NCBI GenBank assembly: GCA_038207395.1
Contig: JBBQZW010000003.1
Location: forward strand, 18,131-82,130
Direction of reading: 5' to 3'
Length of the DNA: 64,000 nt
Source: Minisyncoccia bacterium
GTDB taxonomy: Bacteria > Patescibacteriota > Minisyncoccia > Phycocordibacterales > Phycocordibacteraceae
The number at the start of each line of letters is the position of its first letter. Position 1 is the first letter of the stretch. The position numbers and the translations under genes are program-made. Below the pieces are notes generated by a model. That model was not told where the DNA came from. It searched no databases and saw only the letters and a list, made by a program, of their open reading frames with translations. This document shows positions 10,876 through 38,329 of the stretch, one piece after another.

Positions 10876-11229
10876 ATGCGACACAGCGTTAAAGGACGGG
10901 CATTTAATCGGCCGAAAAACCAGCGAACAGCGCTTATGCGCTCGTTAATGCGCTCACTCATTATTCATGAGGGTATTTCGACGACTGAAGCAAAAGCAAA
11001 GGAACTTCGCCCTATGATCGAGAAGATTATCTCTACAGGACGTGTAGATTCAGTGGCTAATCGCCGCCTTGTTTCTGCTCGCCTTGGAAACGATGATGAG
11101 ATTGTAAAGAAAGTCTTTGCAACCCTTTCTCCTCGGTATGCCGAGCGCCCAGGAGGATACACCCGTATCGTGAAGCGCGCTCCTAATGCCGTAAACGCTC
11201 GCGATAACGCGTACATTGCCTTCGTATAG
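10876..11229 (+). CDS. rplQ: 50S ribosomal protein L17
   Basis: MRHSVKGRAFNRPKNQRTALMRSL... Confidence 0.95.
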   Translation: MRHSVKGRAFNRPKNQRTALMRSLMRSLIIHEGISTTEAKAKELRPMIEKIISTGRVDSVANRRLVSARLGNDDEIVKKVFATLSPRYAERPGGYTRIVKRAPNAVNARDNAYIAFV

Positions 11230-16692: not shown

Positions 16693-16706
16693 GTAAGTAG
16701 TAAAAA

Positions 16707-16748
16707 TAGAACAAGCACGCAGGTTTACCTGCGTGCTTGTTCTATTAT
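16707..16748 (+). terminator. rho-independent terminator
   Basis: agaacaagcacgcagg-ttta-cctgcgtgcttgttct followed by attat. Confidence 0.6.
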
Positions 16749-16792
16749 ATCTTTATGGTATAGTTTAATCTGGTTTTGTGAAAGGGAAACGT

Positions 16793-17209
16793 ATGACTAA
16801 AGTTCTTTCGATTGCAGTAATTTCAATTATTGCAATCACGCTGTGGAGCGTCGGCGAAACTATAGCTGCTCTGATTTTTTGGGTGGCAGCGTTTGCGGGT
16901 TTCCAGATGGCTCTTTTTCTCGTAGAGCAACAAAAGCTTCAGGAGGATATACCACGTGCCCTTCGTCAAACCATTACTCCCACAGGGATGATGAGTGTCG
17001 GCGACATCGCTACACAAGTTCGACATCTTCGATGCGAGCAAAAATTTGGGGAGAAGTCCATTGATCTTCTTTCTACAATCCCGCAAGTTTCCATCTTCTC
17101 AGTATCAAAAGCTCTTGATCAACTGAGAAAGAAAGGAGTTATCGAAGTCCAGTACAGTGGGTATGAACCCAAACGCAGGACCGCATATCGCCTTAAGGAA
17201 GCTGCTTGA
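16793..17209 (+). CDS. hypothetical membrane protein with C-terminal winged-helix-like segment, sitting between dnaK and dnaJ
   Basis: Two N-terminal TM helices. C-terminal ...SIFSVSKALDQLRKKGVIEV resembles a MarR/PadR-like recognition helix. Confidence 0.4.
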   Translation: MTKVLSIAVISIIAITLWSVGETIAALIFWVAAFAGFQMALFLVEQQKLQEDIPRALRQTITPTGMMSVGDIATQVRHLRCEQKFGEKSIDLLSTIPQVSIFSVSKALDQLRKKGVIEVQYSGYEPKRRTAYRLKEAA

Positions 17210-17213
17210 AGCT

Positions 17214-17255
17214 TAAAAACTCTCCTCGCGCCCATCAAAGCGCGAGGAGTTTTTC
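17214..17255 (+). terminator. rho-independent terminator
   Basis: aaaaactcctcgcgc-ccatcaaa-gcgcgaggagttttt. Confidence 0.6.
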
Positions 17256-17313
17256 ATATATATTTTAGACTTTTGCATACAAAAACTGATAGGCGTATAG
17301 TTATAGTACTCAT

Positions 17314-18393
17314 ATGGCAAAAAACTATTACGACATCCTGGGCGTTGACACAAAGGCCACGTCGGACGATGTGAAGAAAGCCTTTCGCAAACTTGCACAA
17401 AAACACCACCCTGATAAAGGGGGAGATGAGTCAAAGTTCAAGGAGATAACCGAAGCCTACAGCATTCTTTCTGATGACAAGAAACGTCGTGAGTATGACA
17501 ACTACGGCCAGACGTTTAATGGTGCTGGGCCTCAGCAGGGTCAGGGTGGAGGAAATCCGTTTGGCGGATTTGACTTCAGTGGATTCGGACAGGGAGGTGT
17601 TGAGTTTGATTTCGGCGATATCTTTGGAGGAGGATTTGGTGACATCTTTGGAGGAGGAGCTCCGCGCGCGCGCCGTGGACGCGATATTTCTATAGACATC
17701 GAAGTGAGTTTTAAAGAAGCAGTCATGGGCGGAAAGCGTGAAGTTCTCATCACGAAGATTGGTACGTGCGAAACCTGTAAAGGAGATGGTGCAAAGCCCG
17801 GCACAGAGATGAAGACCTGTGAGACTTGTAACGGCGCAGGAAAGGTTCATGAGACTCGTAACTCAATGCTAGGTGCCTTCTCAAGCGTACGCGCCTGCCC
17901 AACATGCGAAGGCTCAGGAAAGATTCCTTCAGAGGCATGTGACAACTGTAAAGGTCGGGGTGTATTAAAGAAGCAAGAGGAAATAAAAATAACCATTCCT
18001 GCAGGCATTGATGGAGGTGAGATGATCCGCATGCCAGGGCTCGGAGAAGCCATAAAGAATGGTATGTCTGGGGACTTGTATGTAAAAGTTCACGTAAAAC
18101 CGCATCCGGTGTTTAAAAAAGACGGTTTGAATCTCGTTATGCAGGCACCACTTAAACTCACCGATGCACTTCTGGGAACAACCATCTCAGTCACGACCGT
18201 TGACGACAAAGTACTCGAAGTGAAGGTCCCCGCCATGAGCGCTCCAGAAGAGACACTTCGCATTCGTAGTAAAGGAGTACACACCGAACGCGGTACCGGT
18301 GATCTTCTTATTCGTCTATCCGCAACGCTCCCTAAGAAACTTTCAAACAAGGCGAAGAAAGCTATAGAAGAACTGAAGGCAGAAGGGTTCTAA
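17314..18393 (+). CDS. dnaJ: molecular chaperone DnaJ
   Basis: J-domain with HPD, a G/F-rich region, four CxxCxGxG zinc-finger repeats. Confidence 0.95.
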   Translation: MAKNYYDILGVDTKATSDDVKKAFRKLAQKHHPDKGGDESKFKEITEAYSILSDDKKRREYDNYGQTFNGAGPQQGQGGGNPFGGFDFSGFGQGGVEFDFGDIFGGGFGDIFGGGAPRARRGRDISIDIEVSFKEAVMGGKREVLITKIGTCETCKGDGAKPGTEMKTCETCNGAGKVHETRNSMLGAFSSVRACPTCEGSGKIPSEACDNCKGRGVLKKQEEIKITIPAGIDGGEMIRMPGLGEAIKNGMSGDLYVKVHVKPHPVFKKDGLNLVMQAPLKLTDALLGTTISVTTVDDKVLEVKVPAMSAPEETLRIRSKGVHTERGTGDLLIRLSATLPKKLSNKAKKAIEELKAEGF

Positions 18394-25211: not shown

Positions 25212-25964
25212 ATGGATGAGACCCTCTCCATTCAGGATCAACATACGAAAAAATTCACCATCCGCACGGACTCCTTTGAAGGGCCGCTCGAGCTCATCCT
25301 CGAGCTCATCGAAAAACGTAAACTCCTTGTTAATGAGCTTTCTCTTTCTCAAGTCACGGATGATTTCATATCCTATGTAAAGAATGGGGAAAACTTTCCA
25401 ATGGAAGATGCATCGAACTTCATAAACGTTGCAGCCACGCTCCTTCTTATTAAATCCCGTTCATTACTTCCTGATCTCGAGCTTACGCATGAAGAGGAAG
25501 AAGATGTTGAAGATCTAACGCGCCGTCTTGCCTTGTACGAACTAACGCGCACCGCAGCGCGTGATCTTTCAAAACTCTTTGGAAGAAGCGTAATGGTCTC
25601 TCGGGGTGAGCGTGAACCTGAAGTTGTATTTGCTCCATCACGTGACCTTTCACTTGAGAATCTTGAGATGGCACTTCGTACCGTGCTTTCAAGTAAGGAG
25701 AAAGAAGAGAAACTCCCTGAAGTGCGTATTCGTCCACTCGTGTCTATTGAAGAAATGATGGACACCCTCCGCGAACGCGTTGAGCGAGCAATGACCCTTT
25801 CGTTTAAAGAATTCACGGGTAGCAAAACAGAAAAAATAGAAGTTATCGTTTCGTTCCTGGCGCTCCTTGAACTCGTGAAAATGGGAGCAATGGAAGCGGA
25901 GCAATTTGACCGCTGGGGAGATATTAGAATCACCAACACGTCTACAACAGTACCCCGGTACTAG
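25212..25964 (+). CDS. scpA: segregation and condensation protein A
   Basis: FEGPLELILELIEKRKL is the ScpA kleisin hallmark. Confidence 0.85.
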   Translation: MDETLSIQDQHTKKFTIRTDSFEGPLELILELIEKRKLLVNELSLSQVTDDFISYVKNGENFPMEDASNFINVAATLLLIKSRSLLPDLELTHEEEEDVEDLTRRLALYELTRTAARDLSKLFGRSVMVSRGEREPEVVFAPSRDLSLENLEMALRTVLSSKEKEEKLPEVRIRPLVSIEEMMDTLRERVERAMTLSFKEFTGSKTEKIEVIVSFLALLELVKMGAMEAEQFDRWGDIRITNTSTTVPRY

Positions 25965-26006
25965 TGTGGTTTCGAGGGCCATTTTGAGGTATGGTAAAGG
26001 GAATAT

Positions 26007-26573
26007 ATGGCCCTTTCGCTCCCGCACACGCTTGAAGCCTTACTCTTTGCCGCAGGTGAGGCATTGCCTAAAAAACGTATTGCGGTACTCCTTTCCATTC
26101 CTCCAGAAATGCTAACCGCTGCAGTACTTGAGCTAAAGGATGAGCTCAAGTCACGAGGTATTTCACTTATAGAAACGGAGAACGAACTTGAGCTTCGAAC
26201 GAGTCCTGACGCTGCTGTCGTTATAGACGCATTCCGAAAAGGCGAGCTCGCGCGGGATCTAGGAAAAGCTGGTTTGGAAGCCCTGGCTATCATCTTGTAT
26301 CAAAAAGGTGCCACCCGAAGCGAAGTTGACTGGGTGCGCGGGGTAAATTCCACAGCCGCCATTCGCTCACTCCTTTTACGTGGACTTATTGAACGCGAAA
26401 CAGATAGTGATGATAAGCGACGTATAAGGTATACACCCAGCATTGAAGCATACGCACACCTCGGTATCAGTGGCTTTGAAGAGCTTCCTAACGTGCAAGC
26501 CCTTACCGGTATGCTTTCTCAGCATGCCCCGGAACCAGAAACGAGTGGTGCGGTACATCTAGAAAACGAATAA
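26007..26573 (+). CDS. scpB: segregation and condensation protein B
   Basis: LEALLFAAGEALP...ETENELELRTSPDAA; tandem wHTH ScpB. Confidence 0.85.
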   Translation: MALSLPHTLEALLFAAGEALPKKRIAVLLSIPPEMLTAAVLELKDELKSRGISLIETENELELRTSPDAAVVIDAFRKGELARDLGKAGLEALAIILYQKGATRSEVDWVRGVNSTAAIRSLLLRGLIERETDSDDKRRIRYTPSIEAYAHLGISGFEELPNVQALTGMLSQHAPEPETSGAVHLENE

Positions 26574-27621: not shown

Positions 27622-28686
27622 ATGCTCTACTTTGAAGCCGCGCGCGTATTAATTCCCTTCATTGTCTCATTTTCTGTAGGCATTGTACTTGCACCGGTAC
27701 TTGCACACTATTTGTACAAATATAAGGCGTGGAAAAAGAAGGGAGGGAAAGGAAAGGGAATTGGTGACGGAAACGGCACGCCTCTTTTTGATAGTCTGCA
27801 CAAGGAACGCGAAGTTTCGACGCCGCGGCTTGGCGGTATCCTAGTCTGGACCTCAGTATTTACGACAGCGCTACTCCTTGCACTTCTTAGCTTCTTTATA
27901 GGCGGACCGTATTCTTCCCTAAACCTTGTTGACCGCGGGCAAACCTGGCTTCCGCTCTTTGCGCTTATCGTAGGAGGACTTACCGGACTCGTCGATGATG
28001 TTCTGGAGATTCGCACCTCAGCCGGAGGACTTTCTATGCGGTGGCGTCTGCTTGTGGTGGCCGTCTTCGGTGCGTTTGCCGGATGGTGGTTCTACGCAAA
28101 ACTTGGTGTTTCAAGTATCGGTGTTCCATTCTTTGGTGCTATTCCTCTTGGTGGGTTCTTTATTCTCTTTTTCGTACTTGTAACCCTAACCCTGTATGCC
28201 AGTGGTGTTATTGATGGCATTGATGGTCTGGCGGGTGGCGTCTTCTCCATCATCTTTATGGCGTATGCGGGGATTGCCTTTGCTCAAAACCAAGTCTCGC
28301 TCGCCGCATTCGCTGCCACGGTCTCAGGTGCCACGTTTGCCTTCCTTTGGTTCAACATTCCTCCTGCACGCTTTTATCTTTCGGAAACAGGTTCAATGGC
28401 CTTAACCCTTGCACTTGCCGTTACAGCGTTTTCTGCAGACTCACTTGGAGACGGAGTTGGCGTCTTTGTCCTGCCAATTATTGCGCTCCCCCTCTTTGCC
28501 ACGGTAGTCGGGAATGTACTCCAGGTATTCTGGAAAAAAGTATTTAAACGCAAACTCTTCCGTATTGCTCCTATTCATCATCATTTTGAAGCAATTGGCT
28601 GGCCTGCATATAAAGTAGCGATGCGGTACTGGATTGTAACTATCCTTGCCGGTATCTTTGGCATTGCTATCGCGCTTTTGAAGTAA
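27622..28686 (+). CDS. mraY: phospho-N-acetylmuramoyl-pentapeptide transferase
   Basis: Polytopic membrane protein with DD motif (GLVDDVLEI) and APIHHHFE. Confidence 0.93.
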   Translation: MLYFEAARVLIPFIVSFSVGIVLAPVLAHYLYKYKAWKKKGGKGKGIGDGNGTPLFDSLHKEREVSTPRLGGILVWTSVFTTALLLALLSFFIGGPYSSLNLVDRGQTWLPLFALIVGGLTGLVDDVLEIRTSAGGLSMRWRLLVVAVFGAFAGWWFYAKLGVSSIGVPFFGAIPLGGFFILFFVLVTLTLYASGVIDGIDGLAGGVFSIIFMAYAGIAFAQNQVSLAAFAATVSGATFAFLWFNIPPARFYLSETGSMALTLALAVTAFSADSLGDGVGVFVLPIIALPLFATVVGNVLQVFWKKVFKRKLFRIAPIHHHFEAIGWPAYKVAMRYWIVTILAGIFGIAIALLK

Positions 28687-28708
28687 GTTCTAACCTCACT
28701 CTGCCAGC
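28685..28708 (+). repeat. copy 0 of the AAGTTCTAAC...CAGCCAG repeat family; overlaps the mraY stop codon and sits at the left junction of the insertion
   Basis: taAGTTCTAACctcactCTGCCAGC. It shares AAGTTCTAAC and the CAG..CCAGC tail with the six internal copies. Confidence 0.6.
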
Positions 28709-30186
28709 ATTTCTGAAAAGGTAGGGTTTTGAGGTGCTAAAGCGAATATGTTGTACGGTGATTTGTATTGTATTTCCTCGATATTTCTATTGAGCAACAT
28801 AGAGTTCGATAGTGCTTCTGAGAGTATTTCTCGCTTTCGGTCAGGAAGTGCTGTCTTGTATTCATCCGCCAAGGAATTACCTTGTTTAAACTTAGAATAG
28901 ATGAGTTCGATAGTTGCGAGAGGGTCATGAGCTTTCTTCTCTAGTTCCTGCATGCGCTTGGTGAGCCGTACACTTTCATTATCAATTTCCTTTAATTTGG
29001 CTCTGTAGAGCTCGGTGTCTATGTCTCCCTCGGTGTAGGTGTCTACAAGCCTAGACTTGCGTGTAGTGAGCAATTTGAGGGCTTTCTGAGTATCTTCCAA
29101 GGCATGGTCTTGAGTACCTTTTGAATGATGTAGTTCTTCGAGCTTCGCTTTATAAACGATATCAATCATGCGCTGGCTAATCTTGAGCTTATTGAGGTCG
29201 AGAGTTATTTGTTTGTGGAGTTCAATTTCATTGGCATTGAATGAACGTTGATCGCAAATGCCTTTACCATTAGTGCAGTGATAGTAGATATATTTCTCTT
29301 TCTTGAGTTCAGCAGTAATGGCACAACCGCATTGAGCGCAGGTCATGAAGCCGGAGAGCGTGAACGAAAGAGTCTTGCCTCGTGGTTTGCTTTTCTTAGC
29401 ACAAACTTCCTGGCACTTCTGAAATAGTTCGGATGAAATAAGTGGCTCATGATTGCCTAGATATTGAATGCCATTTGATTCCATGATGCCGCAGTAGAAG
29501 GAACTAGTGAGGATTTTCTGTATACCAGATTTATATACTTTCTTGCCGGAAGAAGTGCGCAGTCCTTGTTCAAAGAGTGTCGTAGAGATTGATTGATGGC
29601 CGTGGAGCCCTGTAGCGTACATTTCAAATATCTTTTGGACGTAGGGAGCACGTGCAGTGTCTAAGGCAATAGTCTTGTTTACTTTGTCGTTTACATATCC
29701 AAAAGGAGCACGGTTAATCCAGTCGCCTCGCTTTAGTTTTTCTCTATTTCCTCGCTTAACATTTAAACTTTTCTGATCGTTCTCTAGCTTTGCTTGGGAA
29801 CACAACATCATGAGCATGAACTTGCTGTTTGGGTCGTTCTTGAATTCTTGGGAGTACGTTTTGACTGAAAGTAGTTTTCCGCTGTCCATGAGGTCTACAA
29901 GCTTTCCTAAGTCTCCTGCATTACGCGAGAGTCTGTCAGGAGCCCAGGTGAGTATTGAGTTGTACAAGCCAGAATTGATACCAGCTATCATGCGATTGAA
30001 CTCAGGGCGCATGTCAGCTTTCTTTGCTGAGTGAGATTCTCTAATTATCTCTACAACATTCAGTTCATTACGTTCTGCAATACGCTTCATCTCATTTTCC
30101 TGAGCGTCCAAGGACATTATTTGTCGCTCCTCGCTTTCTGAGGACTTACGAATGTATAAGACATAGTTTTCCATAGATAGGCGCAT
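28696..30186 (-). CDS. large serine recombinase (phage-type serine integrase)
   Basis: N-terminal resolvase catalytic domain YVLYIRKSSESEERQIMSLDAQ, a recombinase domain, a zinc ribbon (CAQCGC...YYHCTNGKGIC) and a C-terminal coiled coil. Start overlaps Rep stop by 1 nt (TAATG). Confidence 0.88.
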   Translation of the reverse strand: MRLSMENYVLYIRKSSESEERQIMSLDAQENEMKRIAERNELNVVEIIRESHSAKKADMRPEFNRMIAGINSGLYNSILTWAPDRLSRNAGDLGKLVDLMDSGKLLSVKTYSQEFKNDPNSKFMLMMLCSQAKLENDQKSLNVKRGNREKLKRGDWINRAPFGYVNDKVNKTIALDTARAPYVQKIFEMYATGLHGHQSISTTLFEQGLRTSSGKKVYKSGIQKILTSSFYCGIMESNGIQYLGNHEPLISSELFQKCQEVCAKKSKPRGKTLSFTLSGFMTCAQCGCAITAELKKEKYIYYHCTNGKGICDQRSFNANEIELHKQITLDLNKLKISQRMIDIVYKAKLEELHHSKGTQDHALEDTQKALKLLTTRKSRLVDTYTEGDIDTELYRAKLKEIDNESVRLTKRMQELEKKAHDPLATIELIYSKFKQGNSLADEYKTALPDRKREILSEALSNSMLLNRNIEEIQYKSPYNIFALAPQNPTFSEMLAE

Positions 30187-31097
30187 TATGCTCTTTCTGG
30201 GTAATTCCTCAAATCGAGAGATTCAGCAGTTTCTACTGAGTCGATATAAATCTCAGTCATTCGTCGTTTAAGCTGTTGTAGGTTCTCGTTCTTTTTGTGA
30301 AAGTCAAAAGAATCTTCAATTGAGTTAGGTGCAGTGAAAACTATAAACGGTGAATTGAGAGCTACGAATCCGCCTTTCAACTGAAGATTAAAAGGGTAGC
30401 GATCAGCGATTTGCAGTAGTTGTGCAAAGGGAACGTTTCCTTCTCGGAAGTCGTCAAACAAAAGACATTCGTCTTGTTGATACCCTGTACCTGGCCAGTG
30501 ACCATCTGATACGGAACAGATTTCAGTAAAGTTTCTGTATACAAGTGAGGTTTTTCCGACGCCTGTATTTCCATATATCCAAAATACCTTGGGTGGTATG
30601 TTTTGGTCGCGATGTCTTAAATAAATTGGCTGAAGACACTGGGCATAGCGAAGTTGCTGTTGGTTGTTTGCAAACTCATCAATAATTTTATTGAGATCTT
30701 TAGGATTTGCTTTAATAGCTTCTTTGATTTCGCTCATGTCAGTACGAGAACCTTGTTTGCTGGGTTCCCCAAACACAAAGAAGTTTCCATCCTTTTGCGT
30801 ATACGTCTCATTTGTTTCAACACTGCCATTTGCTTTTTCTACATGGAACTTGAGTAGCTCTCCATTTCGAGTGAAGTTTAAATATTTTTGTAGATATGGA
30901 ATACGCTGAGCATTCTTAAGTTCAATATATCCCTGAATGTGAGGAGTTCCGTTTTCTTCACCAATCTCCAAACCGTAGCTAATGTAGTAATGATTTTCTA
31001 ATAAAGCGGCAAGAACGTGTAATCTCTCCAAGTCCTCCTGGGAGTAATTGTTGATAGTAAAACAGTATCTACGGCTTTTAATCTGTTTCTTCTCCAT
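30186..31097 (-). CDS. rep: rolling-circle replication initiator Rep, CRESS-DNA-virus type (HUH endonuclease + SF3 helicase)
   Basis: Motif I CFTINNY, motif II PHIQGYIEL, motif III YTQKDG, Walker A GNTGVGKTS, Walker B LLFDDF, motif C FTAPNS. ATG at 31097; an upstream TTG at 31112 gives the track ORF. Confidence 0.85.
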   Translation of the reverse strand: MEKKQIKSRRYCFTINNYSQEDLERLHVLAALLENHYYISYGLEIGEENGTPHIQGYIELKNAQRIPYLQKYLNFTRNGELLKFHVEKANGSVETNETYTQKDGNFFVFGEPSKQGSRTDMSEIKEAIKANPKDLNKIIDEFANNQQQLRYAQCLQPIYLRHRDQNIPPKVFWIYGNTGVGKTSLVYRNFTEICSVSDGHWPGTGYQQDECLLFDDFREGNVPFAQLLQIADRYPFNLQLKGGFVALNSPFIVFTAPNSIEDSFDFHKKNENLQQLKRRMTEIYIDSVETAESLDLRNYPERA

Positions 31098-31119
31098 ATT
31101 AATTTTGTCCAAATGTCCC

Positions 31120-31149
31120 GAAGTCGGGGGTAATACTATCCCCGACTTC
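31120..31149 (-). other. origin-like stem-loop: 10-bp GC-rich stem with nonanucleotide TAGTATTAC in the loop (minus strand), 23 nt upstream of Rep
   Basis: Plus strand: gaagtcgggg-gtaatactat-ccccgacttc. Minus strand reads GAAGTCGGGG-ATAGTATTAC-CCCCGACTTC. The loop contains the NAGTATTAC nick motif of circo- and nanovirus origins. CCCGAC-containing direct repeats flank it. Confidence 0.6.
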
Positions 31150-31357
31150 CGTGGCGCGGTGCCGGACTAAAGTCCCGACACTCGCCCCGTCCCCAAACAA
31201 GCATCGAATGAGCGAAGCAAGGTGCAGTTGAGCATCATCCGCAGAAACGGCCACGCCTTGGGTGGCGGCCATTTCTGCCTGATACTCCTGAATTAGTGCC
31301 GTACTAAAATGCATTAGCCCACCCTATAAAAAAGGAGAGTGAGTATGGGTGAGAGGT

Positions 31358-32224
31358 TTAGTGAGGATGCTCTAAGTACCGTTCGTGCACGGCGAGGTGG
31401 TCAGCATGAACGCTGAATATTTGAGAGAGTCGTGGGTGCTTTTTAACAAAGCGATTGAGAGCATCTTTATACGATATCTTCTCCGCTTTCATTTTGTTTT
31501 GCTCAAACTCCGGTATGTCGGTATAGTCTATTCTGTTTTCACTGAACTGGTTGAATAGAGCCTTGAGCGCAAAGTGTTCCTTGTTGGGTTTGTTTTGATA
31601 TCCAACTGATACAGTTTGATCATCAAAGTGGAATTCATACCTTTCAGGGTCATACCAAATACCGGCATCTTTAACATCTTCAAAAGAAATGCCGTTATTC
31701 ATTTTCTCTAGTAATCGCTCAATACTTCTAAAGGGCGAAAGGACAATGGTTGCTACAACCTCAGGAGGGTTTCCTTTTATCGCATCTCTCGCGGCATCAA
31801 GAACATCTTTTATATTCATGTCGTTCTCTAAGAAGACTTCTTTAGGAATGAATATGTTTGCGGGTATCGTTTTCTCAATCATGTCTGTACCAGCTAAGTT
31901 TAGTGCTTCAACAAAGTCAGTTGTATCTAGATTCGCAAGTTCATTGAGAACTTTTTCATAGTTTTCATCAGCTAGAAACTTCTGAATCTCAGGGTGAGCT
32001 TTCTGTTCGAATACATAGAAGCCAACGAGATATCCTTTGCTATCAAGTTGGGTAAGGGTGTTCAAAAATACAGGAACGGTTAGAGCGGACAAGTTGATAT
32101 GCTCGTACGTGATTCGGAGCGTATGCTGCTCTTCATCCTTAAGATGGGGTACTTGTTTCCGTGCATGGAAAAGAAGCCTTAAGACGTTGAGGACAGCTAG
32201 TATGTTCTGCTCACGAGGGGTCAT
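31358..32224 (-). CDS. hypothetical protein of the mobile element (288 aa)
   Basis: No recognisable motif and no Arg-rich capsid-like N-terminus. AT-rich like Rep. Confidence 0.5.
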   Translation of the reverse strand: MTPREQNILAVLNVLRLLFHARKQVPHLKDEEQHTLRITYEHINLSALTVPVFLNTLTQLDSKGYLVGFYVFEQKAHPEIQKFLADENYEKVLNELANLDTTDFVEALNLAGTDMIEKTIPANIFIPKEVFLENDMNIKDVLDAARDAIKGNPPEVVATIVLSPFRSIERLLEKMNNGISFEDVKDAGIWYDPERYEFHFDDQTVSVGYQNKPNKEHFALKALFNQFSENRIDYTDIPEFEQNKMKAEKISYKDALNRFVKKHPRLSQIFSVHADHLAVHERYLEHPH

Positions 32225-32248
32225 ATGGGGATATTGTATAGTTATTGC

Positions 32249-33028
32249 ATGAGTTTAGAAGGACCACCACGCAAAAAGAAAACTTTCTATGAAATTCTAG
32301 GAGTAGGCGCTGATGCTTCTGATAAAGAGATTAGTGAATCTTTTAGAGAGCTTTCAAAGAAGTTTCATCCTGATAATCAGGAAAGTGGAGATGAGGAAAA
32401 GTACAAGAAAATCTCTGAGGCGTATACCGCTTTAAAAAAACCAGAATCAAGAGACAAATACGATACTCAACGAGGTCATAGTTCTGCATCAGCTAGCCCG
32501 GGAGCTACACGCCCTACATATGAGGCACGAAAACCACGGGTTATTAATCTCACGATTGAGACTAATAATGGTAAAGCCTTTATAACCAAAGAGGGTAAGC
32601 GAATTTCTAAAGAGTATGACGCAATACAAAAAGCAAAAGAAGGTATTGCTGATTTTTATATCGGTATTCTACCGAACCAAGTAGATATTTTTAATCCAAA
32701 TGGAATGTTTGATATTGTTGAAGCAAGTTATAAATCCATTGAATACAAAAATGGAATTCTGGTTGGTAAAAGCCTTTATGGGAATAGTGAAAGCCTCTTG
32801 AGTTTAAAGAGTGGAAAAGAAGTCATTGGAGGTTACACAGAGTTCAATCTAATCGACGGCCATATTGTCGGAACTAATATGTACGGCACGGGAGTTGATG
32901 TAATTGATTCTAAGACCGGATTACCCATCTCGCATAATTTTAAGACGATTGAGATAGAGGACGGCAAGCTAGTTGCAACAAGTTGGGACGGGAAGAAAGG
33001 CAGGGTTTCCGTTGAGAAAAAGAAATAA
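32249..33028 (+). CDS. J-domain (DnaJ-like) protein with C-terminal glycine-rich repeat domain
   Basis: TFYEILGVGADASDKEISESFRELSKKFHPDN is a canonical J-domain with HPD. C-terminal repeats YKNGILVGKSLYGN / LIDGHIVGTNMYGTG. ATG at 32249 preferred over 32225. Confidence 0.7.
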   Translation: MSLEGPPRKKKTFYEILGVGADASDKEISESFRELSKKFHPDNQESGDEEKYKKISEAYTALKKPESRDKYDTQRGHSSASASPGATRPTYEARKPRVINLTIETNNGKAFITKEGKRISKEYDAIQKAKEGIADFYIGILPNQVDIFNPNGMFDIVEASYKSIEYKNGILVGKSLYGNSESLLSLKSGKEVIGGYTEFNLIDGHIVGTNMYGTGVDVIDSKTGLPISHNFKTIEIEDGKLVATSWDGKKGRVSVEKKK

Positions 33029-33045
33029 TCCCTTTTCAATATACC

Positions 33046-33074
33046 CTTGACATATTCATGTAAAGGGTATATAA
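33046..33074 (+). promoter_or_regulatory. consensus sigma-70 promoter (TTGACA-17-TATAAT) embedded in a 9-bp inverted repeat
   Basis: cccTTGACAtattcatgtaaagggtaTATAATc, with tataccctt...aagggtata arms. An RBS GGGAGA precedes the ATG at 33108. Confidence 0.5.
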
Positions 33075-33107
33075 TCTTTACAAGTTCATTCAATTGGGAG
33101 AATTACA

Positions 33108-33356
33108 ATGACTCAGGCAAGTTTTGTGCTGGAAGACATCGGTTCGGAAAATCGAACCTATGAATTCAGTCAGGACATCGATTTCGCGCCTTACAATGGT
33201 ATGAAGATCGATCTCGGCAATGCTCCGCCCTGCTACGTGCACTCAGCTGTGTACAGGCTGGACGAGCGGAGCTGGAACGTTCGCCTCAAGCCACGGCACA
33301 ATGAGCAAAAGCCCGAGCCTGGAGAGCTTGAGCGGCTCGGGTGGAAGACCTATTAG
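33108..33356 (+). CDS. hypothetical small protein (82 aa), GC-rich cassette-like gene
   Basis: ORF with RBS. GC content is clearly higher than the flanks. A hairpin terminator follows at 33362-33389. Confidence 0.45.
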   Translation: MTQASFVLEDIGSENRTYEFSQDIDFAPYNGMKIDLGNAPPCYVHSAVYRLDERSWNVRLKPRHNEQKPEPGELERLGWKTY

Positions 33357-33401
33357 CTCGAAGCCCCGCTGCAGAAATGTGGCGGGGCTAATTCATTAAT
33401 A

Positions 33402-33430
33402 GAGTTCTAACATCGACCCAGACAGCCAGC
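33402..33430 (+). repeat. copy A of the 28-bp repeat
   Basis: gAGTTCTAACaTCGACCCAGACAGCCAGC. Confidence 0.7.
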
Positions 33431-33529
33431 ACCAAACCACAAAGCCCCATATGTACGTGCTAAAAGAAAGAGGCGGCCCGAAGGTCGCCTCTTTGCGCAA
33501 ATTATCCGGTGCGCATTATTTCGGAATGG

Positions 33530-33865
33530 TCAGGCTTTGAAATATTTGCCTTGCGCACGGGCTTCTCCCCTGGTCTTCCACCCATCTTCACGAAATCCAT
33601 CGTAGTCGTGAGCATACACGTAGAAGTAAAGGGTGATGTTCGGGGTCCCGTCCTCATGGCGCCAGTGGAAAATCTGCGAGACCTCATCTGCCATATCGTC
33701 GCCGAGCTGGAACATTTCGGCTTCGCGAGGAAGAACTGGCCACTCAAACTCCTTGAAAATTGGCTCGAGATCGAGCTTTTCTTTGTCCTCGCAGAATTTT
33801 TCTCCAATACGAACACAAGCTACAAACTTGATCATGTAATCCTCCATCAAAAGAGCTGGGTACAT
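33530..33865 (-). CDS. hypothetical protein (111 aa; may start at the internal Met near 33835)
   Basis: GGAGG RBS upstream of ATG at 33865. A hairpin terminator lies downstream at 33466-33495. Confidence 0.45.
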   Translation of the reverse strand: MYPALLMEDYMIKFVACVRIGEKFCEDKEKLDLEPIFKEFEWPVLPREAEMFQLGDDMADEVSQIFHWRHEDGTPNITLYFYVYAHDYDGFREDGWKTRGEARAQGKYFKA

Positions 33866-33899
33866 ATTACGTCATTAAACATATATTGTCAAGTATAAA

Positions 33900-33927
33900 A
33901 AGTTCTAACGTCGACCCAGACAGCCAC
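33900..33927 (+). repeat. copy B of the 28-bp repeat
   Basis: tataaaAAGTTCTAACGTCGACCCAGACAGCCAcg. Flanked by TTGTCAAGTATA and CTTGACTTATAC. Confidence 0.7.
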
Positions 33928-34020
33928 GGATAAGAAACTTGACTTATACTATATTTCATGCCATCTTATATACAGCGAATTTAAGGAATAAGTTAACCCT
34001 TTCACCTTACGGAGGTCTTT

Positions 34021-34206
34021 ATGCCCGAAGTTCAGAACACTCGCATGTGCGCGACCCCTACTTGCCGCACTCCGGTTACCAACCCGCAGTCAGGTTACTG
34101 CGATTCATGTCTTGAGTTCGATCAGCTGACTTACGACCTTGAAACAGCTCGTTTCCAGCAAGAGCTGGCCGATGAGGATCTTCAACGTTTAATGCAAGGG
34201 GATTAG
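34021..34206 (+). CDS. small zinc-ribbon protein (61 aa)
   Basis: CATPTCRTP...CDSC (two CxxC pairs). A GGAGG RBS lies 7 nt upstream. Confidence 0.45.
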   Translation: MPEVQNTRMCATPTCRTPVTNPQSGYCDSCLEFDQLTYDLETARFQQELADEDLQRLMQGD

Positions 34207-34270
34207 CGGTGCGAATGGAACCCGATCACGCTTTTGGCGAGGTCGGGTTTTCTCTATTTAGAGGTATAAA

Positions 34271-34296
34271 AAGTTCTAACGTCGACCTAAACAGCC
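34271..34296 (+). repeat. copy C of the 28-bp repeat (diverged tail)
   Basis: tataaaAAGTTCTAACGTCGACCtAaACAGCC. Confidence 0.65.
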
Positions 34297-34344
34297 TTGA
34301 AGTAAGAAATTCAAAAGGGAGACCATTGCTGGTCTCCCTTGGGT

Positions 34345-34605
34345 TCAGGAACGAACCCGATTTGCTCCTTCTCCTTCCGCGCCGGTTCCAGCTAGAGCGA
34401 AGATCCATGCCATGACACACAGAACGGGATTTGTGTGCCAGTAGTAGGTTGTCCCGAGGAATGCGGCAAGTAGGCGTGGACAGAAGAGCCACGCCAACCA
34501 GCTCAAGATGCCGAACGGTGTCACCACCGCAAACAGCATCGTGAGACGCGGACAGAAGAGCAGAAAGAATAGAAAGAGCCAGCCGTGGTTTGCCCAGAAG
34601 TCCAT
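34345..34605 (-). CDS. small hydrophobic membrane protein (86 aa)
   Basis: Strongly hydrophobic. RBS GGAGG before the ATG at 34605. Bidirectional hairpin gggagaccattgctggtctccc at 34318-34339. Confidence 0.4.
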   Translation of the reverse strand: MDFWANHGWLFLFFLLFCPRLTMLFAVVTPFGILSWLAWLFCPRLLAAFLGTTYYWHTNPVLCVMAWIFALAGTGAEGEGANRVRS

Positions 34606-34676
34606 GTGAAATCCTCCCTGAATAGGCGATAGCTGAGACTATATTAGCATCATTCATAGTACTTGTCAAGTATAAA

Positions 34677-34705
34677 AAGTTCTAACGTCGACCCAGACAG
34701 CCAGC
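34677..34705 (+). repeat. copy D of the 28-bp repeat
   Basis: cttgtcaagtataaaAAGTTCTAACGTCGACCCAGACAGCCAGC. Confidence 0.7.
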
Positions 34706-34731
34706 GAAAAGTATTTATTCTTGTTAATATT

Positions 34732-35124
34732 ATGTTGATGACAGAAAGTAATGTGCAGGACCAAAAACAAATGACACTTTGGGCAGCCGAATGTGCTGAA
34801 CACGTACTTTCATACTTTGAACAGGAACGGCCTGGAGACATGAGGCCGCGATTAGCGATAGAAGCAGCGCGCGCGTGGGTAAAGGGTGAACTAAAAGTTA
34901 GCGAGGCTAGGACTGCTGCGTTTGATGCTCATGACGCAGCACGCGAGGTAAAAACAGACGCAGCTATCGCTGCGGCGCGTGCAGCAGGCCACGCTGCAGC
35001 TACGGTCCATGTCATAACTCATGCTCCGCACGCGGCAGAGTATGCCGTGAAGGCTGCCGAAGCCGCGAGTATTACAGGTGAACGTAAGTGGCAAAAGACG
35101 CGCGATCAGGTATCAAGAATGTAA
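34732..35124 (+). CDS. hypothetical Ala-rich protein (about 131 aa)
   Basis: Start chosen at the internal ATG (MLMTESNVQDQKQ...) of ORF 34663..35124, because the upstream part overlaps repeat copy D. Confidence 0.4.
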   Translation: MLMTESNVQDQKQMTLWAAECAEHVLSYFEQERPGDMRPRLAIEAARAWVKGELKVSEARTAAFDAHDAAREVKTDAAIAAARAAGHAAATVHVITHAPHAAEYAVKAAEAASITGERKWQKTRDQVSRM

Positions 35125-35125
35125 T

Positions 35126-35154
35126 AAGTTCTAACGTCGACCCAGACAGCCAGC
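35126..35154 (+). repeat. copy E of the 28-bp repeat
   Basis: gtaatAAGTTCTAACGTCGACCCAGACAGCCAGC, directly after the stop codon. Confidence 0.7.
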
Positions 35155-35704
35155 AATGTTTTAAAATAAAATTCAAACAGTGAAAAAGAACGCTACTTTA
35201 GAACCGATAATATAAAAAGGTCCGTGACTTTCGCCACGGACCCTAAAAAGTGCAGATACTTTACTCAATCGCCTGCGCTAAAGACTCGCTTTCGCTGCGC
35301 CTACACCTAACGGCTTAAGCTTGCAAAGATCTGCTGGGACAGCATTTAGGCTTGGAAGATTCCGAGTGACCAATTAGGCATGGTTTCAGATCTCCCTTGT
35401 TCGACTCTTACGAGCTCCTCGGCTCAAATGAATGGCTTTGGAATATGAGCTCTGCCGAGGCTCACACCTACTCTGTAGCTTTCGCCTCATCCACATGCGC
35501 AGTATCCTGCTCATGTTTGCGGGTACGGGACGGAGCCCTTATGGAGGACCCTCCTCTATGGATTTCCCCTGGATTATCGATATGCTAAAGGCCTGGACCG
35601 GTTTCAATATACGGCACTTACTCCCGGTATCTCGGTTGATGTCCACGCTGTCCAGTATTAAGAATACTTCGACTCTAACAGCTGTCAATGTGAGGATGTG
35701 AGGA

Positions 35705-35732
35705 AAGTTCCAACGTTGTCCCAGACAGCCAG
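35705..35732 (+). repeat. copy F of the 28-bp repeat (most diverged)
   Basis: AAGTTCcAACGTtGtCCCAGACAGCCAG. Confidence 0.6.
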
Positions 35733-35740
35733 TGCCACTC

Positions 35741-36115
35741 CTAAATCTTTCGTGCTCCTGTAGGAAAGGTTGTTATCCGTCGAGTAATTAATCCTGTAGC
35801 TCCAAAGTAAAAGTATTCTTGAAATTGAACATCCACCGACTCGCCGTTTTTAAGTGAGCCAGAAAATCTTCCCGTTGTTGATACTGCGTTTGGCAGCGTT
35901 GTTACAAGAATATCGGTATGCGTTCCATGCGCGATTATCCTTTCTTCACTATAGAATTTTTTAAACGCAGTCATTCCTTGGAGTGGAGTAGTGCCATCCC
36001 GCAAGTATTCGATCTCATTATCAAATAATGCATAGAGTGATTTGTAATCACCTTCGTCAATATACCGGTAGTAGTTCAGTACGGCTTCTTTCCACAAAGT
36101 GGCCTGCTCGCTCAT
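35741..36115 (-). CDS. NTF2-like / SnoaL-like superfamily protein
   Basis: MSEQATLWKEAVLNYYRYIDEGDYKSLYALFDNEIEYLRDGTTPLQGMTAFKKFY is a typical SnoaL-like N-terminus. Confidence 0.5.
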   Translation of the reverse strand: MSEQATLWKEAVLNYYRYIDEGDYKSLYALFDNEIEYLRDGTTPLQGMTAFKKFYSEERIIAHGTHTDILVTTLPNAVSTTGRFSGSLKNGESVDVQFQEYFYFGATGLITRRITTFPTGARKI

Positions 36116-36200
36116 AGATATAGTATATAACCTCTAGGGCAGAGCTTTTATGTGATATCCGTAGCCCTACTTTGTTAGTAATGCACTATACTTACTCACA

Positions 36201-36404
36201 ATGAGCACCGAGACCCATTTTATAAACGAGCTTGGCAACACTATTCATATTCAAGTTGAGGAACAAGAAATACAGGATCATCCAGGCATCCTGATTACTA
36301 TTACAGGGCCCGACTCTACCTCTACTAACCACATTACGTGCGAAGAAGCTGAGGTTTTGCAGGGACTGCTTTCTAAAACACTACATATCAGTAACTCAGA
36401 CTAG
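36201..36404 (+). CDS. hypothetical small protein (67 aa)
   Basis: ORF only. Confidence 0.3.
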   Translation: MSTETHFINELGNTIHIQVEEQEIQDHPGILITITGPDSTSTNHITCEEAEVLQGLLSKTLHISNSD

Positions 36405-36446
36405 TTAGAGTAGTTTGGTTTCGCATTCGTTTGCTAGAATAGGGGA

Positions 36447-37559
36447 ATGAAAGTTACAGGAGACAAGATCTTTGCGAGTATTGTACTCATCTTAGTGATT
36501 GGAGGTATTGCGCTCTTTTCCTCAGCGGCGCTTGGGCTTCTTGCACGTGTTGATGGCTCTCCCTGGAGGCTTGTTATTTCTCAAATCGGTCTTGGGCTTA
36601 TCCCCGGCTTTATACTCCTCACCGCTTTTCGTTTTCTACCTCAGAAACGACTCGCTCAATTCATTACACCTTTTTACGTAGTGACTATTATCCTTACGCT
36701 CATTGTCTTTATTCCGCATATCGGCCTTACCTTAAACGGTGCACGGCGATGGATTAATCTCGGGTTTACTACCTTTCAGCCAAGCGAGTTCCTAAAGCTC
36801 AGTGTTGTGCTCATGCTTGCAGCGTACCTCGCTCATGCAAAAGGAAAGATCAAAGAAATTCGCACAGGACTTGTACCATTTGGGGTCATTGTTGGGATTC
36901 CGTGTGCGCTACTTCTTTTTCAGCCAAATACTTCAACGGTATTAATTATTGGCTTAACCTCGGCAACCATGTACTTCCTTGCAGGAGCACCGTGGCGGGA
37001 CTTTGCCATCATGGCAGTTGCGAGTGTTGCGTTACTTGTTGTGCTCGTTATCGCGCGCCCGTATCTTATGGAGCGCGTTACCACGTTCATAAATCCTAAA
37101 AACAATGCGCAAACAAGCGGGTACCACATTCAGCAGTCACTTATCGCTATTGGATCTGGAAAAATAACGGGCCGGGGGTTTGGACAAAGTGTACAGAAGT
37201 TTAATTACCTTCCGGAAGCTGAAAGCGACTCAGTATTCGCCGTATACGGAGAAGAGTTTGGATTCTTAGGTACCGTTCTGCTGGTTATGCTTTTCATTGC
37301 CTTTGCGTTGCGAGGACTTATTATTGCCGGTGAGTCGTCTTCACTATTTGGTTCATACGCAGTTACCGGTCTGACCCTTTTGATTACGTTCTCGGCATTT
37401 ATGAATATTGGGGCATTGCTTGGCATTCTCCCCTTAACCGGACTTCCGCTCCCATTCATTAGTCACGGAGGAACGGCACTTATGGCCGCTCTTATGGCTG
37501 TGGGAATAATTCTCAACATCGCTGCACATCGAACAAAGCGAAAAACTCAGCTGGCATAA
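36447..37559 (+). CDS. ftsW: SEDS-family peptidoglycan glycosyltransferase FtsW/RodA
   Basis: Ten-TM profile, GFGQSVQKFNYLPEAESDSVFAVYGEEFGFLG and PFISHGGTALMA motifs. Confidence 0.9.
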   Translation: MKVTGDKIFASIVLILVIGGIALFSSAALGLLARVDGSPWRLVISQIGLGLIPGFILLTAFRFLPQKRLAQFITPFYVVTIILTLIVFIPHIGLTLNGARRWINLGFTTFQPSEFLKLSVVLMLAAYLAHAKGKIKEIRTGLVPFGVIVGIPCALLLFQPNTSTVLIIGLTSATMYFLAGAPWRDFAIMAVASVALLVVLVIARPYLMERVTTFINPKNNAQTSGYHIQQSLIAIGSGKITGRGFGQSVQKFNYLPEAESDSVFAVYGEEFGFLGTVLLVMLFIAFALRGLIIAGESSSLFGSYAVTGLTLLITFSAFMNIGALLGILPLTGLPLPFISHGGTALMAALMAVGIILNIAAHRTKRKTQLA

Positions 37560-37561
37560 CC

Positions 37562-38329
37562 ATGAACATTATTTGTCTAAACATCTGGGGAGGCAGAGCA
37601 GGTAAGGAGAAATTACTCGCATTCTTTGAAACACATAAAGAAACTACTGATATTTTTTGCCTCCAGGAAGTTTGGTCAGACCGCTATGAGTTCCTTGAAG
37701 GAGCACTTGCCGGAGGCGTACCTATTAGCCACGACACTATTATGTCGTATGCACTCCAAGACATATGCGCCGTACTCCCTGATCATGTACCGTATTTCAA
37801 GCCAAGCTTCTTACATAGTTATGGACTGTGTATGTTCGTCCATAAAAAGCTAAACGTGATTGAAGAAGGTGATATATTCGTGCACTTTGCACGTGGGTAC
37901 ATACCTGAAGGTGATGTAGGGAATCACGCGCGCAACATGCAGTATGTGACCATAGAGACCGAGCTCGGACCTAAGACCGTTCTTAACCTGCACGGACTAT
38001 GGAATGGAGCAGGGAAGTCAGACTCAGATCAGCGCATCGTGCAGACTGACCGCATACTTAGCTTTATTTCTTCACTTTCAAACCCCTTTGTACTGTGCGG
38101 AGATTTTAATCTCTCCCCAGACACTGAGAGTTTGCAAAGAATTGAACGAGAAGGGCATCGAAACCTTATTTCCGAATATGGCATTACCTCTACCCGTACG
38201 AGTTTTTACACGAAGCCTGAGCGATATGCTGACTACGCATTTGTTAGTGAAGGAGTTGAAGTTCTTGGATTCGAAATACTTCCAGACGAAGTCTCTGACC
38301 ATGCACCGCTTCGCATCGAGATTGCGTGA
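37562..38329 (+). CDS. endonuclease/exonuclease/phosphatase (EEP) family protein
   Basis: IICLNIWGG...DIFCLQEV (N-terminal Mg-binding motif) and SDHAPLRIEI (C-terminal catalytic His) are EEP hallmarks. Confidence 0.75.
   Translation: MNIICLNIWGGRAGKEKLLAFFETHKETTDIFCLQEVWSDRYEFLEGALAGGVPISHDTIMSYALQDICAVLPDHVPYFKPSFLHSYGLCMFVHKKLNVIEEGDIFVHFARGYIPEGDVGNHARNMQYVTIETELGPKTVLNLHGLWNGAGKSDSDQRIVQTDRILSFISSLSNPFVLCGDFNLSPDTESLQRIEREGHRNLISEYGITSTRTSFYTKPERYADYAFVSEGVEVLGFEILPDEVSDHAPLRIEIA

Follow-up and report, generated by a model that had tools for sequence, protein, structure and literature searches.

The division genes mraY and ftsW of the Minisyncoccia bacterium studied here are separated by a recombinase, a replication protein, a J-domain protein, a series of small genes and several copies of a short repeat. 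They lie in a 64,000-nt stretch of contig JBBQZW010000003.1 (the window), and all coordinates are window positions unless a locus with an L number is named. Our best reading of this interval, built from sequence comparison, is a cassette platform driven by a large serine recombinase (LSR), similar to integrons or to the staphylococcal cassette chromosome (SCC), which a replicon resembling pCRESS plasmids appears to have entered. We consider it probable, at roughly 0.6, that the interval is a chromosomal gene-cassette array run by this LSR. The host flanks and the replicon are as follows:

27622-28686, plus strand: mraY, host flank (Pfam PF00953), stop codon TAA at 28684-28686
28706-33427: Rep-LSR replicon unit (U0), 4,722 bp, adjoining the short arm described below
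28696-30186, minus strand: LSR, 496 aa, with Resolvase, Recombinase and Zn_ribbon_recom domains
30186-31112 (likely ATG at 31097), minus strand: Rep, an HUH endonuclease with a superfamily 3 (SF3) helicase, circovirus type; Pfam Viral_Rep and RNA_helicase
31120-31149, minus strand: putative rolling-circle origin stem-loop GAAGTCGGGG-ATAGTATTAC-CCCCGACTTC, with the nonanucleotide TAGTATTAC at 31130-31138
31099-31314, minus strand: putative small open reading frame (ORF) of 71 aa overlapping the origin hairpins; a gene of 52-80 aa is called there in related modules
31358-32224, minus strand: conserved 288-aa module protein with a winged-helix DNA-binding fold
32225-33028, plus strand: J-domain protein of 267 aa, replicon cargo; Pfam DnaJ at residues 21-80
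33108-33356, plus strand: 82-aa ORF, last gene of the 4.7-kb unit, with a GC content at third codon positions (GC3) of 0.65 and a perfect TTGACA-17-TATAAT promoter upstream
36447-37559, plus strand: ftsW, host flank (Pfam PF01098, E 3e-95)

The genes listed by the original prediction (mraY, recombinase, Rep, a hypothetical ORF, the J-domain protein, small ORFs and ftsW) agree with gene calls and Pfam. Its premise that mraY and ftsW are normally adjacent does not hold in this clade, where relatives carry varied DNA between them. Those whose MraY is 85-91% identical to that of the window keep the order trpS-aspS-scpA-scpB-dacA-mraY-X-ftsW-murG-gltX, with a variable X that consists of MazG and HD in L167, of YbaK, a racemase, MazG and HD in L182, and of three small genes and TerC in L171. 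Homology between the window and its relatives (blastn) ends at the mraY stop and restarts at about 36430, some 17 nt before the ftsW ATG. Different DNA in each relative, together with this break, points to a variable interval in which window positions 28687-36430 are lineage-specific. An ancestral arrangement, with the same genes of host-like composition, is not what L167, L182 and L171 carry, and the view of a foreign, variable interval joined site-specifically at the mraY stop holds. The prediction was also right that murD does not lie between mraY and ftsW: it was found there neither in the window nor in the four relatives compared, and since it is missing in relatives too, its absence from the interval is ancestral. 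The protein P0121 is 100% identical to the window MraY, and it and its relatives (85-91% identity) all end in ...ALLK*. Names borne by near-identical proteins place the host among the Paceibacteria, a group of the candidate phyla radiation. The mosaic composition that had been noticed by eye is borne out by GC3, which is 0.37-0.46 in host genes, 0.31-0.45 in the block of LSR, Rep, 288-aa and J-domain genes and 0.53-0.67 in the cassette ORFs.

Half-site arms, tRNA-Gln and related arrays

The sequence GTTCTAACGTCGACCCAGACAGCC occurs six times with at most 3 mismatches (at 33404, 33902, 34273, 34679, 35128 and 35707), always on one strand and with 0 occurrences expected by chance, so that the predicted repeat is real. 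With a shorter variant at mraY, that strand carries seven copies of a single asymmetric half-site, six long and one short. They are listed here with the site types in which we read them, all on the minus strand:

28687-28705, variant copy to 28709: short attB-type arm, 19 nt, abutting the mraY stop
33404-33428: attP-type long arm P1 with centre, closing the replicon unit 28706-33427
33902-33926: attP-type arm P2 with centre, a repeat copy
34273-34297: attP-type arm P3, degenerate, with two mismatches and the centre CT, not CA (plus strand)
34679-34703: attP-type arm P4 with centre, a repeat copy
35128-35152: attP-type arm P5 with centre, a repeat copy
35707-35731: attP-type arm P6 with centre, the outermost and most divergent copy

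Forty distinct long sites, from 13 loci, share only (T)GC-TG-GCnGTnTGGGwCGAyGTTnGAAC; the edges of this block are sharp and its flanks unrelated. The short form lacks exactly 5 nt of the long form, wCGAy, and the distal motif GTTrGAAC, a T-loop sequence, lies 5 bp further out in the long arm. If positions are counted from the TG of the palindromic core (TGC-TG-GCA), the last one in the arm is 24 for the long form and 19 for the short form. In serine integrase sites, the zinc-ribbon domain reads a 9-bp motif at positions 16-24 of attP and 11-19 of attB half-sites (Rutherford 2013, PMC3783163). Since our arm ends fit these positions exactly, and our centre was set from the palindrome and from where the conserved block ends, independently of the numbers in PMC3783163, we read the long copies as attP-type (P) arms and the short copy as the attB-type (B) arm of the LSR. 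The centre is TG (CA on the plus strand) in the B site and in five of the six P sites, the exception being the CT of P3. This arm model matches every close-family locus with upstream sequence; of the other LSR loci, 154 with 2.1 Mb of sequence, it matches only one. The last codons and the stop of the LSR gene lie within the B arm. The original prediction had placed a repeat copy over the mraY stop and the recombinase stop within that copy; the LSR stop (28696-28698) is indeed inside it, and the copy itself is a variant 5 nt shorter, not a truncated repeat.

The short form leads to tRNA-Gln. An intact tRNA-Gln gene on the opposite strand overlaps the LSR 3' end in six loci (L004, L008, L009, L011, L087 and L183), the short form being the 3' end of that gene, while in L010 the LSR 3' end overlaps a tRNA-Ser instead. 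In the window, the short arm and centre (28687-28706) read TG-GCAGAGTGAGGTTAGAAC on the LSR strand, equal to tRNA-Gln nucleotides 53-72, of which the 19-nt arm covers 53-71. On the ARAGORN cloverleaf, tRNA positions 71-72 are complementary to the TG of TGC-TG-GCA, discriminator G73 and one further base are complementary to the conserved GC on the left of that TG, and GTTCGAAyC is the T-loop. The element would usually target tRNA-Gln, and the short arm beside mraY appears to mimic a tRNA-Gln 3' end. Two further short arms lie outside any tRNA-Gln: in L175 (11474-11485) the one at the LSR end abuts the lexA stop, and in L179 (3507-3612) a tRNA-Pro gene has its 3' end 12 nt away from it.

The most informative relative is L181, in which MraY is 88% identical to that of the window, the synteny is the same and a short arm again abuts the mraY stop (TTGAAATAG directly followed by GTTCAATCCCTAGTCTCCCAGCAA). 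Five long arms and five units follow, the last long arm lying 32 nt before the ftsW ATG, and the units consist of small genes between promoter-like and terminator sequences; neither LSR nor Rep is present in this mraY-ftsW array. Since the blastn alignment of window and L181 continues from mraY through the arm to 28709, the short arm is best seen as a resident acceptor site that predates the divergence of the two genomes and at which the cargo has turned over completely. The single ~7.5-kb insertion of the original prediction is not supported: what is found is one 4.7-kb Rep-LSR replicon and five separate units of 0.37-0.58 kb, each with a half-site, all in this pre-existing site, which L181 has without a recombinase. 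In L182 the sequence directly after the mraY stop (11066-11090), AGTTCTAGAATTAGCAA, retains six bases from the start of the short arm and four from its end and may be a remnant with an internal deletion; the L182 sequence GTTCTAGAATTAGCAA may be a decayed short-arm remnant.

The order of long arm and cargo, repeated, then short arm, then host DNA is found in the window, in L181, in L063 and in a second array of L002, and the last three have no Rep-LSR module in cis. Close homologues from Paceibacteria all have the same module and arms with cargo that is always different, so that only module and arms are common between loci. In L173 the module stands in the middle of an array and its LSR end is joined to a long arm, as predicted for the junction of the circle; the C-terminal tails of LSR proteins diverge after ...EML, which is the position of the predicted junction.

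Several arrays show further arrangements. The second array of L002 (15454-16694), which lies about 8 kb downstream of the LSR in opposite orientation, has three long arms and one short arm and no recombinase. In L002 two inverted short arms (one at 7516-7538) also bracket the host segment tpiA...beta-lactamase-fold gene with their distal ends facing it, which suggests an LSR-mediated inversion. L063, a Campbellbacteria contig (4982-8576 and 9923-11260), has a different LSR of about 445 aa, without Rep, near an array of three long arms and one short; this LSR is 44% identical over the N-terminal part and has a close copy in L177 (20776-21485), 9 kb from a Rep-LSR module. A second recombinase family may use the same arms. 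Finally, L183 is a 4,830-bp contig that holds exactly one replicon unit, its positions 1-29 starting at the first base after the predicted central TG of a long arm and its other end lying inside the tRNA-Gln (4781-4830). As assembly graphs break where contexts diverge, these contig ends hint at alternative junctions in that sample.

Two other placements of the crossover were tried and rejected. A crossover at or after the GAAC of the T-loop, with an element-borne tRNA 3' end, predicts short-then-long arrays, the opposite of those seen, and it also fails in that no displaced tRNA fragment was found upstream and that L181 shows the short arm to be resident. If the crossover fell between the two motif blocks, the distal motif would sit at 1-8 or 6-13 and not at the published 11-19/16-24 (PMC3783163).

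The Rep-LSR replicon and the cassettes

All three LSR domains (PF00239, PF07508 and PF13408) score above their cutoffs, giving an N-terminal resolvase domain followed by recombinase and zinc-ribbon domains. The 73 homologue clusters, 56-92% identical, all come from candidate phyla radiation (CPR) assemblies or metagenomes, and the catalytic R13-K14-S15 and the Cys ligands are invariant in the 35 homologues aligned; identity to phage serine integrases is 24-29% over the full length. Scans with the LSR alignment gave five close loci in genomes, and at least one close locus among the metagenome matches listed, which were mostly distant LSRs. Rep matches PF02407 and PF00910, its residues 9-259 match the Rep of porcine circovirus 2 (PCV2; 7lar, E 4e-20), and its translation contains the motifs CFTINN, HIQGY, YTQKDG and GNTGVGKT; it is also weakly similar to RepA of Bifidobacterium p4M. 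All 7 modules scanned have, immediately upstream of rep, a hairpin with a 10-bp stem and ATAGTATTAC in the loop, which in the window has a DNA fold of -13.6 kcal/mol (z -2.7). TAGTATTAC is the circovirus/nanovirus nonanucleotide, and the hairpin has the form of a canonical Rep origin.

The overlap of the Rep stop and the recombinase start in TAATG, with one base in common, was confirmed, and the suggested co-expression of the two genes is plausible, given this overlap and a gene order that is kept in every homologous locus. The order 288-aa gene, small ORF, Rep, LSR is likewise kept wherever upstream sequence exists, while the flanking host genes vary. Taken together, these features make the LSR-Rep block a conserved mobile replicon, complete with LSR, Rep and its own origin, winged-helix protein and cargo. 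Searches of Pfam and PHROGs gave no family match for the 288-aa protein or for the putative 71-aa ORF. By its fold the former is probably a DNA binder, for which regulator, origin factor and directionality factor are candidate roles. Among the module ORFs beyond Rep, LSR and the J domain, no capsid gene was found by Pfam or PHROG match (the 288-aa protein being a winged helix), and no viral contig matched the repeat pattern or Rep.

The J-domain protein, which has its J domain at the N-terminus, a C-terminal part without a match and a GC3 of 0.31, is absent from other modules; a J domain encoded by the element itself could enlist the DnaK of the host in replication or recombination. Full host dnaK and dnaJ genes are found at 14788-18393, 14 kb upstream of the J-domain gene of the replicon. 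Module units elsewhere carry 1-5 kb of cargo, and cargo at other loci includes TIR with SLATT, PycTM with a cyclase, PIN and GNAT genes. Beyond P1, the window continues with five short units (U1 to U5) and two further ORFs before ftsW:

33428-33925, minus strand: U1, 498 bp; promoter 33892-33864, ORF of about 101-111 aa (33530-33865)
33926-34296, no strand assigned: U2, 371 bp; 61-aa ORF at 34021-34206 (plus strand)
34297-34702, minus strand: U3, 406 bp; promoter 34669-34641, membrane-like 86-aa ORF at 34345-34605, terminator 34340-34315
34703-35151, plus strand: U4, 449 bp; Imm5-like immunity protein, ORF 34663/34733-35124
35152-35730, minus strand: U5, 579 bp; promoter 35688-35661, terminator 35244-35217
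35741-36115, minus strand: SnoaL-like gene (Pfam SnoaL_2, E 3e-5, under the curated cutoff)
36201-36404, plus strand: 67-aa ORF

Annotation of the cassettes with Pfam, PHROGs and PADLOC gave only three matches: the Imm5-like protein of U4 (Pfam PF21805, E 1e-39; GC3 0.67), the sub-cutoff SnoaL-like gene and a weak KwaA-like match of the 86-aa ORF of U3 (E 6e-4). The ORF of U1 had no family match. U5 contains no ORF of 50 aa or more on its promoter strand and has no Rfam match, but its 446-nt transcript region folds better than 100 of 100 shuffles (RNA fold z -3.6), and its terminator is strong; the cassette may thus carry a structured RNA that is non-coding in place of a gene for a protein. 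Promoter-like boxes (TTGACA-17-TAATAT) stand 9 nt beyond P2 and P4, and terminators precede P3 and P5.

On the right side the final repeat copy ends at 35731, and homology to relatives is back at about 36430. The SnoaL-like gene and the 67-aa ORF in between (35741-36404) have a low GC of 0.41, are absent from relatives and have no arm beyond them; they could represent old cargo, or else the flank that the acceptor site originally had.

Two other places in the surrounding gene cluster vary as well. An endonuclease/exonuclease/phosphatase-family gene stands between ftsW and murG in the window (37562-38329) and in L181 (14351-15473), whereas in L167, L171 and L182 murG directly follows ftsW, making this a second variable spot of the division cluster. 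Similarly, scpA and scpB are adjacent in the window (25964-26007) and in L181, and are split by a gene for an FAD-dependent oxidoreductase of 416-442 aa in L167 (6600-8381, with an additional 144-aa ORF in the gap), L171 (7029-8357) and L182 (7132-8382).

Proposed recombination and rival explanations

From site types, geometry and architecture we infer the following scheme. The LSR would recombine a P-type site on a circle with the chromosomal B-type site at the TG. Because specificity would reside in the arm on a single side of the TG, each exchange would yield a P-type and a B-type site anew rather than inert attL and attR. The B site would stay beside mraY (or tRNA-Gln) and accept the next circle, so that the array would grow there with its newest unit nearest, while recombination of a P site with the B site inside the array would release circles. 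At tRNA-Gln, the conserved GC left of the centre would restore discriminator G73 after every insertion. In the window the Rep-LSR replicon (U0) would be the newest arrival and could undergo rolling-circle replication after excision; the cassettes would be self-expressed foreign cargo such as the immunity protein and the small membrane protein. The mismatched centre of P3 would freeze that junction, locking U2 and U3 together. The predicted junctions are ...TTTTCAGAAATGC-TG-GCTGTCTGGGTCGATGTTAGAACTCTATTAATG for the circle, with the LSR end joined to P1, ...GTGGTTTGGTGC-TG-GCAGAGTGAGGTTAGAACTTACTTCAAAAGC for the deletion, with the U1 end joined to the B arm, and those of single-cassette circles, such as the U4 end joined to P5.

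A number of points weigh against this scheme. A reversible swap of one-armed half-sites is a proposal and not established LSR behaviour, and it has no citable precedent: characterised LSRs bind two recognisable half-sites, and their products need a directionality factor to react again. In the 40 long sites (T)GC alone is conserved beyond the centre, so that two inverted half-sites are not seen; the LSR gene end has a possible weak inverted copy (GCAnTCTG ... GTTTAGA). The array of L173 ends in a long arm, which makes the simple growth rule incomplete, and L001 has two short arms (1591-1613 and 3097-3117) inside its long-arm array. The scheme does not account for the bare 19-nt tRNA fragment that abuts stop codons (of mraY in the window and L181, of lexA in L175 and of a beta-lactamase-fold gene in L002), and gene orientation is mixed among the window cassettes. 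At the DNA level no cassette was seen in two different arrays; there was no circular contig (L179, L180 and L183 lack terminal overlap), no recombination product, and no empty/occupied pair for the same cassette. As to L001, it holds the closest relative of the window element, and a 23-nt sequence common to both follows each of its inner short arms at a distance of about 70 nt.

One may also consider explanations other than a cassette array. Whole Rep-LSR elements might have accreted in tandem, as in SCC islands or tycheposons, with the older modules deleted, the long repeats being attL scars and the cassettes remnants of cargo. LSR elements do stack in tandem at one site, and SCC islands include recombinase-less relatives (PMC12648241); module units with 1-5 kb of cargo at other loci and the degenerate state of P3 and P6 would also suit such a history. 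Nevertheless, we regard it as unlikely, as no remnant of LSR, Rep or the 288-aa gene was found in any array and the units, 0.3-1.6 kb long, each hold one intact gene, many with their own promoter and terminator tight against the arms. A 27-nt block kept over 40 sites between unrelated flanks, and orphan arrays that persist at an orthologous site despite complete cargo turnover, are not what scars would give either, and canonical attL and attR each hold one P and one B half, where we see pure long forms and one short. A somewhat less likely history is a single composite plasmid-like element (28687-35731) inserted once, its repeats being iterons, partition sites or operators of the winged-helix protein. 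A circular multi-cassette episome that integrated through one site would leave this picture after a single event, the conserved 288-aa DNA binder has no assigned target, and promoter-like TTGACA boxes follow several arms; set against this are the arrays without a module in cis (L181, L002 second array, L063), the short arm common to a relative at the same chromosomal position, and the six loci in which the short form really is the 3' end of a tRNA-Gln gene. The ends at 19 and 24 and their 5-bp offset moreover fit LSR sites and, to our knowledge, no other class.

The constant company of a circovirus-type Rep beside the LSR, and a faint resemblance of AAGTTCTAAC to TAGTATTAC, bring up mobilisation by the HUH enzyme, in which the repeats would be Rep nick or termination sites and the units single-stranded circles as in tandem geminivirus or nanovirus genomes. 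We hold this to be very improbable. Rep has its own, separate TAGTATTAC origin, the canonical hairpin being found upstream of rep in every module scanned, which argues that the arms are not Rep sites; the repeats have no nonanucleotide and no stem-loop (z -1.3 to +1.1), and arrays occur without Rep. Specifically, ten 65-nt folds of the repeats, on both strands, gave z values of -1.33 to +1.13, and the alignment has no dyad symmetry. Nanovirus-like mini-circles sharing one origin were rejected on the same grounds, the true origin hairpin lying upstream of rep and the repeats showing none. Lastly, short single-gene units with a conserved site, and cargo such as immunity proteins, GNATs and defence genes, are what one would expect of a classical integron with tyrosine integrase and attC, but this failed direct tests and has next to no probability left: no tyrosine recombinase domain occurs among window ORFs of 150 aa or more, the sole recombinase being of the serine type, and the sites, asymmetric and of 27 nt, form no hairpins.

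Known systems and the proposed LSR array

If the interval is indeed an LSR-run cassette array, its ingredients are known singly: integration by LSRs, replicons of the pCRESS kind, and arrays of cassettes in integrons and SCC islands. What appears new is their combination, in which cassettes of one gene each are delimited by a single LSR half-site, the acceptor arm derives from a tRNA, and a rolling-circle cassette carries the recombinase. In the literature on LSR cassette arrays and on CPR Rep-integrase elements we found no description of it, in a coverage that was incomplete and leaves room for a prior one. More far-reaching, and offered tentatively, is the proposal of a second, independent integron principle built on an LSR, with a permanent tRNA-Gln-derived attB-type acceptor, one-armed attP-type cassettes, reversibility without a directionality factor and a recombinase on a circovirus-like rolling-circle cassette, which would stock Paceibacteria with immunity and defence genes. 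CPR genomes are very small and their gene acquisition is poorly known; if true, such a platform inside the division gene cluster, its cargo turning over fully between relatives, would give the group a main route to accessory and defence genes. One-armed sites would then represent a natural, factor-free and reversible mode of serine integrases, which bears on directionality in genome-engineering enzymes, and the compact natural site pair, with a tRNA T-loop as the zinc-ribbon-domain motif, would be of practical interest.

Among replicons, pCRESS plasmids (Kazlauskas 2019, PMC6668415) similarly have a CRESS-virus-like Rep with HUH and SF3 domains, no capsid, and site-specific chromosomal integration. 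They differ in that here rep overlaps an LSR gene by one base and the element sits in an array of att half-sites. Neither Patescibacteria nor Paceibacteria are mentioned in the main text of PMC6668415, and the replicon represents a new host group for integrated plasmids of the pCRESS type. A textbook circovirus origin and Rep inside a bacterial integrative element would extend the link from plasmids to CRESS viruses to Patescibacteria. Phage-type serine integrases (A118/LI, Bxb1 and phiC31; PMC3783163) have the same domains, a non-palindromic central dinucleotide and a 5-bp offset of the zinc-ribbon-domain motif between attP and attB, but they use two recognisable arms and yield inert attL and attR, whereas here conservation is confined to one arm and the P and B types would reappear in the products. 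Pipolins, like the present element, combine a replication module, an integrase and variable cargo at tRNA genes, and have been described as reservoirs of defence genes (PMC11551731). Both pipolins and tycheposons use other replication proteins and mostly tyrosine integrases, and have no arrays of single-gene cassettes delimited by half-sites. Tycheposons too unite a replication module, an integrase and variable cargo at tRNA genes.

SCC elements resemble the array in that an LSR (Ccr) inserts them at the 3' end of a conserved gene, and that the target stays usable and elements stack as composite islands, which include recombinase-less members, the psiSCC elements (PMC12648241). SCC units, in contrast, measure kilobases to tens of kilobases, as opposed to single-gene cassettes of 0.37-0.58 kb; their target is rlmH, which sets them apart from an element at a tRNA-Gln 3' end or at a bare copy of it by the mraY stop; and they use a ccrAB pair where we find one LSR gene accompanied by Rep and an origin. 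The resemblance is functional only.

The closest parallel is with integrons, namely the sedentary chromosomal ones and CALINs, the attC clusters without an integrase. In both systems a fixed acceptor lies beside a conserved position, cassettes are short, mostly of a single gene and with one site each, turnover is complete, orphan arrays lack a recombinase, and the cargo is enriched in immunity, defence and acetyltransferase-type genes; chromosomal integrons are described as stores of defence genes in a preprint (bioRxiv 10.1101/2024.07.02.601686). The enzyme, however, is the tyrosine recombinase IntI in integrons and a serine recombinase here, and the sites are folded attC hairpins (R''-L''...L'-R') as opposed to asymmetric arms of 19 or 24 nt of a double-strand type. 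Unlike in integrons, the cassettes often have their own promoter and terminator, and the recombinase rides on a self-replicating cassette. There is a fair chance that the mraY-ftsW array is a true serine-recombinase counterpart of the integron.

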